DNA of 41,441 nucleotides, taken from IMG/VR virus record IMGVR_UViG_2541047739_000012, one strand, 5' to 3'. The position numbers and the translations under genes were made by a program. Within the stretch, counting starts at the first letter, position 1. Every line of letters begins with the position of its first letter. This stretch comes from a virus (lineage: Duplodnaviria > Heunggongvirae > Uroviricota > Caudoviricetes). The notes under the pieces were generated by a model. That model was not told where the DNA came from and did not search any database. It saw nothing but the letters and a program-made list of their open reading frames with translations. Positions 1 to 40,550 of the stretch are shown piece after piece.

Positions 1-585
1 TTACATTGTGTCTGGTTCTTCCGGCCACTCAATATCAGGTGCAGTTGATGTATCAACACGGTTCAGCAACACCCGATACTTCTTCCATGCTGCCAGCAAC
101 GACGCCTCTTCTTCCGTTGCGATCTCCAGATCCACAGCATCCTGAAGCGGCGCTATATGCTCACTGGCTACCTGCATCAGGCTGTTTTTTGTTTCTTCCG
201 CCTCCCGGATCCGGAACAGTTTTTCTGCTTCTGCATCTTTCACCCAGGCTGTGCCGTTCCACTTCTGAAACTCCCCTTCCGGGGATAACCAGGTGACATT
301 TTCCGGTAATGGGCCAAGTTCAGAAATAAATAACGCGTCGCCGGAAGCCACGTCATAGACGGTTTTACCCCGATGGTCTTCAACGAGATGCCACGATGCC
401 TCATCACTGTTGAAAACAGCCACAAAGCCAGCCGGAATATCTGGCGGTGCAATATCGGTACTGTTTGCTGGCAGACCTGTATGAGGCGGAATGTATGCGT
501 CACCTTCACCAATAAATTCATTAGTTCCGGCCAGCAGATTATAAATTGTTATGGTCCGTGGTTGTTCACTCATTCTGAATGCCAT
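1..585 (-). CDS. tfa: tail fiber assembly protein (Tfa)
   Basis: Complete 194-aa ORF (stop at 1-3, ATG at 583-585); start overlaps the upstream stop as TAATG; sequence recalled as lambda Tfa-like; sits directly after the side tail fibre gene. Confidence 0.85.
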
Positions 586-30043: not shown

Positions 30044-30199
30044 TTACTCCTCAGGTTCGTAAGCTGTGAAGACAGCGACCTCCGTCTGGCCGGTTCGGAT
30101 TCGTACCTCGCAGAGGTCTTTCCTCGTTACCAGTGCCGTCACTATGACGGTTAAACAGATGACGATCAGGGCGATTAACATCGCCTTTTGCTGCTTCAT
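30044..30199 (-). CDS. hok: Hok/Gef-family type I toxin
   Basis: 51-aa frame MKQQKAMLIALIVICLTVIVTALVTRKDLCEVRIRTGQTEVAVFTAYEPEE; single TM plus the conserved RKDLCEV motif. Confidence 0.85.
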   Translation of the reverse strand: MKQQKAMLIALIVICLTVIVTALVTRKDLCEVRIRTGQTEVAVFTAYEPEE

Positions 30200-30256
30200 A
30201 GCCTGCTTCTCCTTGCCTTTCGGCACGTAAGAGGCTAACCTAGATTTGCCGTTCAT
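30044..30256 (-). CDS. mok: Mok-like leader frame (in-frame N-terminal extension of hok)
   Basis: 70-aa ORF from ATG 30254-30256 encompassing hok in frame, as for chromosomal mok/hok pairs. Confidence 0.55.
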   Translation of the reverse strand: MNGKSRLASYVPKGKEKQAMKQQKAMLIALIVICLTVIVTALVTRKDLCEVRIRTGQTEVAVFTAYEPEE

Positions 30257-30490
30257 AGATTGAGCCTCAGATTAATGTTAAGCGTCTTGCAGGACGCGTA
30301 ATGTTAACTGGGGCTTTTCTCTATCTGCCTTTTGGTGTTCATGCCTGAGACAGATAGCCTCAAGCACCCGCTGCAATTCTACTTAACTCTCCTTTTCCCG
30401 CAAACCGTTTTTATCCCCAGCGGCAAATCGAATACACCACCAGCGCCACAGCCATTGCGATTCCTGCCGTTGTAAATGCCTCAGGCCAGG

Positions 30491-34212: not shown

Positions 34213-34860
34213 ATGATGGAAAGCCTTGGCATCAGGCTTAAGAAACTCAGAAAAGATAAGGGACTCACCCAAGTAGAACTGGGTAAGCTTTCAGGCGTGA
34301 CTGGGGTTACTATAGGGTACTGGGAGAAAGATCTAAACGAACCCGGCAGCAAAGCTCTAAGTAAGTTAGCCCAGGCATTAGGAACTACTGAGTCCTATCT
34401 CCTGTATGGAGTATCGTCTCCTGAACTATCTTTTGTGCAGAGCAATCCAGGCACCAAGATCCCCTACTTTTCGTGGGGTGACGCGATTTCTTTCCTAATC
34501 TTAGAAGGAGAGAAAACAATGGGAAATGTCGATAGGATCACCACATTCTTTGATGTAGTGGAAGGTGATTTTGCCGTTTCAATGCCTGATGACACTATGC
34601 ATAACCCCTCAGGGTCACCAAGTATCCCGGTTGGTGCCACTGTGATCCTAAGACCAGGAGAGAGTTATAAAAATGGCAGTATCGTCGCTGTAATAGTTCC
34701 AGATCCACTTACAAATGAACCGTCTATGACTATAAAAAAATTAGTTATTGATGGAAAACTTGTGTATTTAAGCCCTCTCAATCCGCGCTATCAATCATCC
34801 TTGCTTACGCCAGAGTGTAAAATTGTTGCCGTAGCAAAAGGTGTGCAGTTCAACCTATAA
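34213..34860 (+). CDS. cI: CI-like repressor (N-terminal HTH, C-terminal S24 LexA-like peptidase domain)
   Basis: 215-aa ORF; HTH (LTQVELGKLSGVTGVTIGYWE) and a C-terminal region with S24-type features; divergent from cro across the operator region. Confidence 0.75.
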   Translation: MMESLGIRLKKLRKDKGLTQVELGKLSGVTGVTIGYWEKDLNEPGSKALSKLAQALGTTESYLLYGVSSPELSFVQSNPGTKIPYFSWGDAISFLILEGEKTMGNVDRITTFFDVVEGDFAVSMPDDTMHNPSGSPSIPVGATVILRPGESYKNGSIVAVIVPDPLTNEPSMTIKKLVIDGKLVYLSPLNPRYQSSLLTPECKIVAVAKGVQFNL

Positions 34861-34882
34861 CCCTGCTATGTCCTTGAACTTA

Positions 34883-34908
34883 AGGTCGGTTATGCCGACC
34901 TTTTTTTT
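34883..34908 (+). terminator. intrinsic terminator after cI
   Basis: Stem GGTCGG / CCGACC with 5-nt loop, followed by TTTTTTTT. Confidence 0.75.
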
Positions 34909-34913
34909 AAATT

Positions 34914-34962
34914 AATTTAGATTCCCCTTGACTATAAAACTAAATACTTTTAGATTTATTGC
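34914..34962 (+). promoter_or_regulatory. PL-like early-left promoter with operator half-sites
   Basis: -35 TTGACT (34928-34933), 17-bp spacer, -10 TAGATT (34951-34956); TTTAGATT-type half-sites at 34916-34923 and 34949-34956 match the cI/cro operator arm. Confidence 0.5.
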
Positions 34963-35452: not shown

Positions 35453-35671
35453 ATGCAGAAACGAGAACCCGTCATCATCGCGCCAGACTATACCGATGAT
35501 GAACTTTATGAGTGGATGCGCCAGAAAATTAATGCAGCGCAGGATCTGAAATGGGCCAATGAAGCCAGGGCTAAGCAGGCTGAAAATCTGTCCGCTCTGG
35601 AGCAGGATATCACCAGGCTGGAAAAAGCAGCGGCATTAAGCATTGCCAGAATGATTACATACCCGCGTTAA
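35453..35671 (+). CDS. small hypothetical early-left protein
   Basis: 72-aa ORF with SD AGGAAT; predicted helical/coiled-coil (…LSALEQDITRLEKAAALS…). Confidence 0.45.
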   Translation: MQKREPVIIAPDYTDDELYEWMRQKINAAQDLKWANEARAKQAENLSALEQDITRLEKAAALSIARMITYPR

Positions 35672-36224
35672 TAGCTAACCAACGAAGCTAAGAGTTCTCC
35701 ACGGGTGAGGTGGAGTGCGTGCGCCGGACACGGGTGAGCATCCGGCACTGACAGTTTACTGAAAGGATATTTCCATGAAAAGTCAGACCATAACGCGAAA
35801 GCGCACGGCGAGGTAGCTGGTTCATAGATAGCCTGTCGTTAAATTTTCGTCGACCGTGCGCTTCCGGTTGTGGCACTCCGCGAAATGGCGCGGCGGTAAG
35901 TATGGCGGGGTTATTCCTTCCCCGTTGAGGACACCGGGTTGTCAGGTTGACCATACGCTTAAGTGACAACCCCGCTGCAACGCCCTCTGTTATCAATTTT
36001 CTGGTGACGTTTGGCGGTATCAGTTTTACTCCGTGACTGCTCTGCCGCCCTTTTTAAAGTGAATTTTGTGATGCGGTGAATGCGGCTAAGCGCACGCGGA
36101 ACAGTTAAAACCAAAAACAGTGTTATGGGTGGATTCTCTGTATCCGGCGTTAATTGTTAACTGGTTAACGTCACCTGGAGGCACCAGGCACCGCATCACA
36201 AAACTCATTGTTGAGGGCGCGATA

Positions 36225-36413
36225 ATGAAAACGTTATTACCAAACGTTAATACGTCTGAAGGTTGTTTTGAAATTGGTGTCACTATCAGTAATCCTGTAT
36301 TTACTGAAGATGCCATTAACAAAAGAAAACACGAACGGGAGTTATTAAATAAAGTATGCATTGTTTCAATGCTGGCCCGTTTACGTCTGATGCCAAAAGG
36401 ATGTGCACAATGA
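36225..36413 (+). CDS. small hypothetical protein
   Basis: Internal ATG of ORF 36120..36413 with SD GAGGGCG; 62 aa; stop overlaps the next start (ATGA). Confidence 0.4.
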   Translation: MKTLLPNVNTSEGCFEIGVTISNPVFTEDAINKRKHERELLNKVCIVSMLARLRLMPKGCAQ

Positions 36414-36694: not shown

Positions 36695-39121
36695 ATGAGC
36701 ACTGATAAAGAAGAATTTGCACTATATTGCGAAGCAAAAAATGACAAAGTAAGAAAACGCCTGGGAATTAAAGGTGGTTTTTACTGGACTACAGCAAAAA
36801 AATTATCTGTTGCAATCTCCCGCTGCATTACCGCAATGGATGACAACGATTATGATGAAGACGACTTTAAAAAACCCGTCCGCGTCAATTTGCCCGTTGT
36901 TGACGACCTTCCGCCAGAAGGCGTGTTTGATACTGAATTCTGCAACCGCTATGAAAAAGGCGGGAAAGATGGCATCACAATGACATTTATCGGCCCTTCC
37001 CCCTCTGTTCGGGACAAACCAGCCAGCACTGACAATACCAACATCAACGGCGAAGACATGACTGAGATTGAGGAGAGCATGCTTCTGCCTGTCTCCGGTC
37101 AGGAACTGCCCATTCGTTGGCTTGCTCAACACGGCAGCGAAAAACCAGTAACGCACGTTTCACGCGACGAACTCCAGGCATTACACATTGCACGGGCTGA
37201 AGAACTACCGGCTGTTACTGCTCTGGCTATTTCGCATAAAACCAGTCTGCTCGACTCGCTGGAGATTCGCGACCTCCACAAACTGGTTCGTGACACTGAC
37301 AAAGTTTTCCCTAATCCTGGTAATTCAGACCTGGGACTAATAACTGCTTTTTTCGAAGCATACCTGGACGCTGACTACATTGATCGGGGTCTGCTGACAA
37401 AAGAGTGGATGAAAGGAAATCGTGTTTCACGCATCACCCGCACGGCTTCCGGTGCTAATGCTGGCGGTGGGAACAAAACCGATCGCAATCCGAATTTAGT
37501 ACACACCCTCGACACACTGGATGTGGAGATTGCAGCAGCCACACTTCCGGTGGATTTTAATATTTATGAAATTCCGGGCAGCGTTTATCGTCGCGCAAAA
37601 GAAGTAGTCCTGAAAAAAGAAAGTCCGTTCAAAGAATGGTCCGCAGCACTTCGTGCAACCCCGGGTATTCTGGACTATTCCCGCGCCGCTATTTTTGCAC
37701 TTATCCGAAGCGCACACCCTGAATTTTATCACTACCCGGGACGCCTTCAGGGGTATATCAACGCCTATTTGACGGAAACTGATCACGAGAACCCCAGCAA
37801 GGAAACTCTCACAGCTGCCCGGCATACGCCGGAAAAAGATATCCTGGAAGAAATTAACCGCGAGGTGGTTACTGAACGTGAAACAGAGGAAGAAAAACCA
37901 CAACCATCTGACGCAATGGCAGGTGAACAGGCAACAACTGAAACAATGGAACCGGATACAACTGAACATTGCCAGAACGCTCAGTCGCAGGTGAGTTCCG
38001 CTAACCAAGTAAAAGTCACCGCTGACGAAGTAAACAAAATTATGCAGGCAGCCAATATCAGCCAGCCTGACGCCGATAAGTTACTTGCTGTATCGCGTGG
38101 TGAATTTGTTGAGGGGATTAGCGACCCTAATGATCCGAAATGGGTCAAGGGGATCCAGACTCGCGATTCTGTGAACCAGAACCAGCATGAATCGGAACGG
38201 AACGACCAAAAAGCGGAACAAAACAGCCCAAATGCGTTACAAAACGAGCCAGAAACGAAACAATCCGAACCAGTAGCGCAACAGGAACCGGAAAAAGTCT
38301 GCACCGCCTGCGGTCAGAGCGGTGGCGGCAACTGCCCTGATTGTGGCGCGGTGATGGGCGACGCAACATACCAAGAAACATTCGATGAAGAGAATCAGGT
38401 TGAAGTTCAGGAAAATGATCCGGAGGAAATGGAAGGCGCTGAACATCCACACAAGGAGAACCCTGGCGGCAATCAGCATCACGCCAGCGATAATAAAACT
38501 GGCGAGGCGACAGATCCCTTAATTAAGGTGAATGGTCATCATAAGCTCACATCCACCAGCAGAGCGGGGATTCATCTGATGATCGACCTTGAAACCATGG
38601 GAAAAAATCCCGATGCCCCGATTATCTCAATAGGCGCAATATTTTTCGATCCACAAACCGGAGATATGGGACCGGAATTTAGCAAGACCATCGATCTGGA
38701 TACTGCTGGCGGAGTCATTGATCGTGACGTCATTAAATGGTGGCTGAAGCAATCACGTGAAGCGCAGTCTGCCATTATGACCGATGAAATCCCGTTAGAT
38801 GATGCACTACTGCAATTGCGGGAATTTATCGCCGAAAACTCCGGTGAATTTTTTGTTCAGGTCTGGGGTAATGGGGCCAACTTCGACAACGTGATTTTAC
38901 GCCGTTCATACGAACGACAGGGTATCCCCTGCCCGTGGCGCTACTGCAACGATCGCGATGTACGCACAATCGTTGAGCTGGGGAAAGCCATAGACTTCGA
39001 TGCCAGAACTGCTATCCCATTCGAAGGTGAGCGCCATAATGCACTTGATGACGCTCGTTACCAGGCAAAATACGTTTCAGCTATCTGGCAAAAACTGATC
39101 CCGAGTCAGGCTGATTTTTAA
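36695..39121 (+). CDS. large exonuclease with C-terminal DEDDh 3'-5' exonuclease domain (often annotated exodeoxyribonuclease VIII-like)
   Basis: 808-aa ORF; C-terminal DEDDh motifs (MIDLETMG; WGNGANFDNV; HNALDDARY); acidic low-complexity linker and zinc-ribbon-like CTACGQSGGGNCPDCG; located upstream of xis/int. Confidence 0.7.
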   Translation: MSTDKEEFALYCEAKNDKVRKRLGIKGGFYWTTAKKLSVAISRCITAMDDNDYDEDDFKKPVRVNLPVVDDLPPEGVFDTEFCNRYEKGGKDGITMTFIGPSPSVRDKPASTDNTNINGEDMTEIEESMLLPVSGQELPIRWLAQHGSEKPVTHVSRDELQALHIARAEELPAVTALAISHKTSLLDSLEIRDLHKLVRDTDKVFPNPGNSDLGLITAFFEAYLDADYIDRGLLTKEWMKGNRVSRITRTASGANAGGGNKTDRNPNLVHTLDTLDVEIAAATLPVDFNIYEIPGSVYRRAKEVVLKKESPFKEWSAALRATPGILDYSRAAIFALIRSAHPEFYHYPGRLQGYINAYLTETDHENPSKETLTAARHTPEKDILEEINREVVTERETEEEKPQPSDAMAGEQATTETMEPDTTEHCQNAQSQVSSANQVKVTADEVNKIMQAANISQPDADKLLAVSRGEFVEGISDPNDPKWVKGIQTRDSVNQNQHESERNDQKAEQNSPNALQNEPETKQSEPVAQQEPEKVCTACGQSGGGNCPDCGAVMGDATYQETFDEENQVEVQENDPEEMEGAEHPHKENPGGNQHHASDNKTGEATDPLIKVNGHHKLTSTSRAGIHLMIDLETMGKNPDAPIISIGAIFFDPQTGDMGPEFSKTIDLDTAGGVIDRDVIKWWLKQSREAQSAIMTDEIPLDDALLQLREFIAENSGEFFVQVWGNGANFDNVILRRSYERQGIPCPWRYCNDRDVRTIVELGKAIDFDARTAIPFEGERHNALDDARYQAKYVSAIWQKLIPSQADF

Positions 39122-40460: not shown

Positions 40461-40550
40461 TGGCGGAGAGAGGGGGATTTGAACCCCCGGTGGAGTTGCC
40501 CCCACTCCGGTTTTCGAGACCGGTCCGTTCAGCCGCTCCGGCATCTCTCC
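40461..40550 (-). tRNA. serU: tRNA-Ser (anticodon CGA), host gene serving as prophage attachment site
   Basis: 90-nt minus-strand cloverleaf with long variable arm: acceptor GGAGAGA, anticodon arm CCGGT-CTCGAAA-ACCGG, T-loop TTCAAAT, CCA; its 3' end faces the integrase 53 bp away. Confidence 0.85.

Follow-up and report, generated by a model that had tools for sequence, protein, structure and literature searches.

We report that positions 35672-36224 of the window, the 41,441-nucleotide stretch of viral DNA (IMG/VR record IMGVR_UViG_2541047739_000012) analysed here, correspond with a probability of about 95% to the untranslated region (UTR) between ydfC and dicB in a dicBF early-left operon of the Qin type, which encodes the small RNA DicF. 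This gap extends from the ydfC stop codon (35671) to the dicB ATG (36225), the operon has the order ydfA-ydfB-ydfC-(UTR with dicF)-dicB-ydfD-exonuclease, and the region is a real and functional structured RNA. The dicF locus is long known and well described, and the operon was first described in the cryptic prophage Qin of E. coli K-12. The region is appropriately labelled dicF locus and not unexplained gap; it looks empty because RefSeq/PGAP records usually annotate no RNA there. The features of the region and its immediate surroundings are as follows (the basis of each assignment is given in brackets).

34928-34956, plus strand: candidate promoter of the PL/dicBp type, TTGACT-17-TAGATT (consensus scan only).
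35453-35671, plus strand: ydfC, 72 aa (ORF list; ydfC in a 100%-identical RefSeq record and in K-12).
35672-35788, plus strand: variable 5' segment of the UTR with predicted hairpins at 35694-35717, 35723-35746 and 35748-35786 (fold).
35789-35872, plus strand: upstream RNase III helix of 22 bp, arms 35789-35813/35848-35872, with a hypervariable apical loop (inverted repeat, fold).
35873-35997, plus strand: conserved pre-DicF leader with hairpins at 35878-35893, 35904-35926 and 35936-35972 (conservation, fold).
35998-36050, plus strand: DicF sRNA, 53 nt (Rfam RF00039; identity to K-12 dicF).
36058-36209, plus strand: dicF-dicB spacer element with a 21-bp closing helix, 36058-36078/36189-36209 (inverted repeat, covariation).
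Within 36058-36209, plus strand: inner hairpins of the spacer at 36082-36097, 36146-36172 (two GTTAAC sites) and 36174-36188 (CCUGG/CCAGG) (fold).
36210-36224, plus strand: dicB ribosome-binding region with GAGG at 36213-36216 (sequence).
36225-36413, plus strand: dicB, 62 aa, cell-division inhibitor (Pfam DicB PF05358 over its full length, E = 5e-40; RefSeq).

The assignment is based on several concordant observations. The initial annotation had proposed an Rfam scan, and this identified DicF (RF00039) at 35999-36050 on the plus strand, where the match scores 76.7 bits (gathering score 48; E = 1e-16) and spans the full model (1-52); the gathering scan of the whole window gave one DicF only. 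Moreover, K-12 dicF (b1574, 53 nt) aligns at 35998-36050 without a mismatch, both target-pairing regions included, and over the entire gap the identity to K-12 Qin is 98%. [quoted passage not shown] Homologues of the gap are present in 4,775 of the 5,426 complete E. coli genomes (the median is two copies per genome having any) and also in 77 phage records; among the latter, the phages carrying DicF/dicB include the isolates Tritos and vB_EcoS-689R5. A paper from 2016 had reported no matches in the phage databases of its day.

Compared with the dicBF UTR of K-12 Qin (Rfam RF00039; Faubladier 1990, Balasubramanian 2016, Ragunathan 2023) we are thus dealing with the same locus in another prophage. 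The two have in common an identical DicF, the flanking genes, both RNase III helices, the RNase E site and the terminator, while the window differs by a 14-nt deletion at the joint after ydfC and by few substitutions, two of which are G.U-compatible changes in the spacer helix. By virtue of this near-identity, the DicF RNA species, their nuclease dependence and their targets as described for K-12 would apply also here. The repressor is of the cI type with a Peptidase_S24 domain in the window but DicA in K-12, and the exonuclease is present in full (808 aa) in the window while the K-12 counterpart, ydfE, is a pseudogene interrupted by IS2.

With respect to the surroundings, Pfam and RefSeq place a cro-type gene, a cI-type repressor, ydfA (DUF1391), ydfB and ydfC upstream of the gap, and dicB, ydfD (DUF1482) and the 808-aa exonuclease downstream of it. 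The repressor gene (34213-34860) and its terminator (34882-34902) precede the candidate promoter at 34928-34956. The repressor carries HTH_3 and Peptidase_S24 domains, i.e., it is of the cI/LexA type, and K-12 DicA has been described as being without a RecA-cleavable site; since the repressor here has the Peptidase_S24 domain, unlike DicA, induction may differ from that in K-12, and DicF and DicB of this prophage may be SOS-inducible. In the exonuclease (36695-39121), an N-terminal Exonuc_VIII region is joined to an Rv2179c-like 3'-5' exoribonuclease domain at the C-terminus (E = 3e-66). Elsewhere in the window, Rfam matches above threshold were an IS009 RNA (44-242, minus strand), a sok antitoxin RNA (30194-30369, minus strand), which implies a hok/sok module, a cluster of four tRNA genes (24953-25259, minus strand) and, near the right end, a single long tRNA (40464-40550, minus strand) that may mark the prophage attachment site.

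That the gap is a structured RNA, either a regulatory RNA and/or a processing site, had been suggested from the letters alone, and this was correct in both respects: it encodes the DicF sRNA, and its long repeats coincide with the RNase III sites published for K-12. Nearly all features then described are present, with coordinates that were off by 1-3 nt. Specifically, the hairpin given as 35722-35745 has its stem GCCGGA/TCCGGC at 35723-35728/35741-35746, and the 10-bp repeat AAGCGCACGG/CCGTGCGCTT is present at 35799-35808/35854-35863; the repeat finder reports the latter as a 13-nt repeat (35796-35808/35854-35866), and it extends into the 22-bp imperfect helix 35789-35813/35848-35872. The imperfect inverted repeat that had been put at 17 bp has arms of 19 nt at 36060-36078/36189-36207, which are 95% complementary with 110 nt between them, and extends to 21 bp (36058-36078/36189-36209). 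Of the tandem GTTAAC palindromes, found at 36156 and 36164, the two sites pair together as one hairpin. The description of the segment as GC-rich holds locally (55-56% over 35700-35999) and not overall, the gap having 51.7% against 50.7% for the window. The most diagnostic feature, DicF with its terminator hairpin and U-tract (36013-36055), had been missed. A 19-nt inverted repeat with one mismatch is well beyond expectation, as none of 300 dinucleotide shuffles reached this length (mean 10.9 +/- 1.1, maximum 15), while the 13-nt arm alone is within chance (25/300 shuffles). The predicted folding energy of the gap is -217 kcal/mol, compared with -181 +/- 6.5 for shuffles (z = -5.5), and the reverse complement gives z = -5.65; because both beat the shuffles alike, fold energy alone picks no strand.

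In the DicF terminator, the U-tract UUUUU (36051-36055) comes after a hairpin of -15.9 kcal/mol at 36013-36049. An internal loop in the stem caused a simple terminator scan to overlook it, and its identification is based on the Rfam model and the fold. In K-12, the 5' end of the 53-nt DicF is RNase E-dependent and its 3' end is the intrinsic terminator, while the 3' end of a 72-nt DicF is made by RNase III on read-through transcripts. A third species of 190 nt, with an RNase III-dependent 5' end, was reported together with a printed primer-extension sequence by Ragunathan 2023, and that sequence (their Fig. S1B) equals approximately 35811-36050 of the window.

Both long helices, 22 bp and 21 bp, correspond to about two turns (~20 bp) of duplex as RNase III needs, and cleavage of both is predicted. 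If 190 nt are counted back from the 3' end of dicF, the 5' end of pre-DicF and the corresponding RNase III cut would be at ~35860/35861 (with ~35861 as the first nucleotide), in the 3' arm of the upstream helix. Likewise, counting 72 nt forward from 35998, a cut after ~36069 in the 5' arm of the spacer helix would give the 3' end of 72-nt DicF, and a partner cut near 36199/36200 would leave a dicB leader of ~25 nt. These coordinates derive from published fragment sizes and not from ends mapped in this sequence, because the numbering in Ragunathan 2023 ("positions 813/814" and a "1,146-nt" transcript) is not relatable to the window.

To assess conservation and covariation across relatives, as had also been proposed, we used ~230 loci from viral-contig scans with the DicF core and the spacer hairpin motif. 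The upstream helix is 96.8% paired over 70 variants and varies only on one side and in a G.U-compatible manner; covariation has no power in this helix because the sequences are too similar and lack double-sided changes. Its apical loop and one leader hairpin have in some loci been swapped for unrelated sequences, which form hairpins all the same. Across the 70 variants the leader hardly varies, and it ends in an AU-rich RNase E site, AUCAAU/UUUCUGG, at 35997/35998. A leader copy that is 78% identical is present in P1, beside a stretch that is annotated as "dicF-like region" and follows the ban promoter, and this copy shows compensatory changes in two leader hairpins. The leader (~35867-35989) was also found without DicF in Stx2c phages. 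In an Stx2c phage (L005, ~1620-1680) and in Shigella phage 75/02 Stx (L007, ~1540-1590) the DicF slot is occupied by another short, RNA-like sequence, which has a terminator hairpin of the TTTGGCGG...CCGCC type and lacks the DicF 5' seed, and neither of these slot sequences matched the Rfam DicF model at E <= 0.01. We also considered that the dicB Shine-Dalgarno sequence might be sequestered by CGCCCUC at 35981-35987, as in the minimum free energy (MFE) fold; this was rejected, as in 51 of 58 variants the sequence is GAGGACG, so that the pairing is lost and no compensating change restores it.

The spacer element gave the clearest comparative signal. In an alignment of 55 unique variants (80-100% identical) 96.8% of the cells are paired, and 98.1% in the 21-bp closing helix. 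Seven pairs are changed on both sides, a number reached by 3 of 500 shuffles, and there are 16 double-change cells against 3.4 +/- 1.6 in shuffles (0/500); controls with slid partners pair at 36-41%, so the covariation exceeds both controls. The centre of the element is hypervariable and the flanks are almost invariant. The helices carry many G.U pairs on the plus strand, for which the consensus fold is -93.1 kcal/mol against -84.3 for the reverse complement.

The strand bias also bears on whether the inverted repeats act as DNA, i.e., as protein-binding or recombination sites, rather than as RNA structure. The two strands fold equally far from their shuffles, as they would for any inverted repeat, and a phage mosaic joint is near, at 35691/35692. 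We nevertheless consider a role at the DNA level to be very improbable: substitutions in the helices give G.U pairs, which are tolerated, on the plus strand, whereas the opposite strand would have C.A mismatches, the consensus fold energy favours the plus strand, and the DicF RNA species with their nuclease dependence are documented in the K-12 literature. Equally improbable is the suggestion that the gap is a decayed gene, for instance a pseudogene remnant of the 102-aa ORF at 35688-35996 on the minus strand. This ORF exists, some automated annotations place "hypothetical protein" calls in the homologous region, and some relatives have two CDSs directly after ydfC. However, only 23 of 70 unique variants keep the frame open, the variable columns are distributed 33/36/31 over codon positions 1/2/3 and thus show no codon-position bias, the length classes of relatives differ by 1-2 nt, and the ORF has no Pfam family; it was therefore rejected as a gene, in line with the view of the initial annotation that it was unconvincing. 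More generally, the ORF list, Pfam and frame conservation bear out that the gap has no convincing ORF, and it is explained by RNA features that have experimental backing.

The CDSs of the relatives have another origin. Just after ydfC, at 35691/35692, there is a mosaic joint that is also an insertion hot spot, and conservation begins at differing points among loci (query positions 1, 21, 29, 47 or 107). In some E. coli, and in NZ_CP101920, ~600 bp with two unassigned CDSs are inserted at this joint; in L002 (1773-2400) the CDSs encode 106 aa on the plus strand and 91 aa on the minus strand and overlap tail to tail. The 14 extra nt of K-12 are a remnant of the right end of this insertion, of which the window retains none. 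We found no Pfam family for either inserted CDS, and the insertion as an ancestral gene was rejected, given its position at the joint; the relatives' genes are not an intact version of the gap DNA. Within the variable segment, an exact 10-nt direct repeat, CACGGGTGAG, occurs at 35700-35709 and 35729-35738, in two adjacent hairpins.

The initial annotation had also listed an antitermination site. In such a role the leader (35873-35997) and/or the spacer would in addition act in cis, as a put/nut-like signal or as an antiterminator that allows transcription past the DicF terminator toward dicB, the exonuclease and int. There is no N-like gene between the repressor and ydfA, yet the genes past the terminator need expression; the leader is nearly invariant and is an independent module in P1 and Stx2c phages; and the MFE fold of the 190-nt precursor (-69.4 kcal/mol) pairs ~35887-35911 with the 3' half of the terminator. 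As in HK022, whose put RNAs mediate processive antitermination by RNA only, the early-left transcript of this lambdoid phage contains structured RNA, and there is no N gene in the usual place. On the other hand, comparison with the HK022 immunity region carrying the put sites gave only chance matches of 10-11 nt (E >= 0.65), and an HK022 put-like element was rejected for this lack of sequence similarity; there was no other pointer to antitermination. The terminator-forming fold is essentially isoenergetic (-68.7 kcal/mol), in stepwise folding the leader folds on itself before the terminator is made, the alternative antiterminator helix shows no covariation, and K-12 yields terminated as well as read-through transcripts without any report of a dedicated factor. 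We therefore regard a cis-acting role of this kind as unlikely, though less so than the DNA-level and decayed-gene readings.

Taken together, we favour the dicF locus, and the following series of events is conceivable, in which the exact cut coordinates, the promoter and the order of RNase III before RNase E are our proposals. Upon inactivation of the cI-type repressor, the PL-like promoter would yield one polycistronic RNA. RNase III would cut the 22-bp helix (35789-35872), which for transcripts that ended at 36013-36055 would generate a pre-DicF of ~190 nt, and RNase E would then cut the AU-rich single strand at 35997/35998 to give the mature 53-nt DicF. On read-through transcripts, RNase III would cut the 21-bp helix (36058-36209), resulting in 72-nt DicF and a dicB-ydfD mRNA with a short leader. 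DicF together with Hfq would pair with the ftsZ, xylR, pykA and manX mRNAs and block their translation, DicB together with MinC would block assembly of the FtsZ ring, and the two would jointly stop host cell division.

The spacer element is not confined to the neighbourhood of DicF, since it occurs alone in D6, P7 and a Klebsiella phage. It resembles Rfam STnc100 (RF02076) with a sub-threshold score of 38.8 bits against a gathering score of 47 (E = 2e-6), where the match covers model positions 21-154 of 206 and is absent from the whole-window gathering scan; P1, D6 and a Shigella Stx phage likewise gave sub-threshold STnc100 matches at the corresponding location. Common to the spacer and STnc100/PasD are the CACCNGGAGGCACCNGGCACC hairpin, the GGUGAAU block and, overall, a closed layout with several hairpins, while the closing helix of the spacer is 21 bp compared with 8 bp in the consensus of the STnc100 model. 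Moreover, canonical STnc100/PasD copies belong to the late region, where they are found close to Q or after stx, while the spacer is in the early-left operon, and in EDL933 the STnc100/PasD copies are ~10 kb from the DicF copies. The spacer being PasD or a canonical STnc100 was thus rejected, on the score below the Rfam threshold and on the late-region position of those RNAs. In the motif scan, 94 loci without BLAST similarity to the gap are probably canonical copies of the STnc100/PasD type. Where a gene follows, the distance from CACCNGGAGGCACCNGGCACC to the start codon was, among all fetched loci, fixed for each type of gene: 32 nt before DicB (55 loci), 37 nt before a KilR-type Kil (9 loci) and 40 nt before TciA/TerB (D6). 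Some viral contigs with CACCNGGAGGCACCNGGCACC hold two to three copies, in three cases 484 nt apart.

A comparable arrangement is present in the K-12 prophage Rac. KilS is a northern-verified and RIL-seq-detected sRNA of Rac (Bar et al. 2021, PMC8175672), for which an own promoter has been suggested, and KilR expression has been reported to be gated by NusG-dependent termination. When the Rac locus (NC_000913.3, 1418229-1418502) is compared with 35998-36209 of the window, KilS aligns with the DicF slot. Like DicF it ends at the same GGCGG...CCGCC-U5 terminator, after which follows the same helix element of ~150 nt with near-identical 5' and 3' blocks, and in both Rac and the Qin-type operon an FtsZ-directed division inhibitor begins 32-37 nt after the CCUGG/CCAGG hairpin. 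The two differ in that KilS has a 5' part with no relation to the DicF seed, that the Rac inhibitor is KilR and not DicB, and that the pre-DicF leader (35873-35997) is not conserved in Rac. KilS being itself the spacer element was rejected, as in the alignment it occupies the DicF slot and the spacer comes after. Since in both prophages a slot sRNA with a terminator is followed by the helix element and then by a division inhibitor, the cassette is common to prophages with unrelated inhibitors. Neither this shared cassette nor a relationship between DicF and KilS was described in the literature that we could search.

We tentatively propose, as a possibility that we would not yet favour, that 36058-36209 is a mobile and conserved early-left leader module, a distant relative of STnc100/PasD, which gates toxic division-inhibitor genes, with a constant spacing of 32-40 nt to dicB, kilR or tciA, and is always placed after an interchangeable, terminator-ended sRNA slot (DicF, KilS and unnamed variants). 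RNase III excision of ~36070-36199 might also free an RNA of ~130 nt with a function of its own.

In K-12, DicF together with Hfq represses ftsZ, xylR, pykA and manX, and DicB together with MinC blocks the FtsZ ring; in addition, it has been reported in the literature that DicF activates virulence genes in EHEC and that DicB confers immunity to some phages. DicF and DicB thereby let the prophage halt host division and rewire sugar metabolism. The spacer element and the sRNA slot are the less-charted part of the locus and the sole part that may repay further work. Finally, the presence of the helix element and the sRNA slot before different inhibitors could explain how toxic genes are controlled post-transcriptionally.
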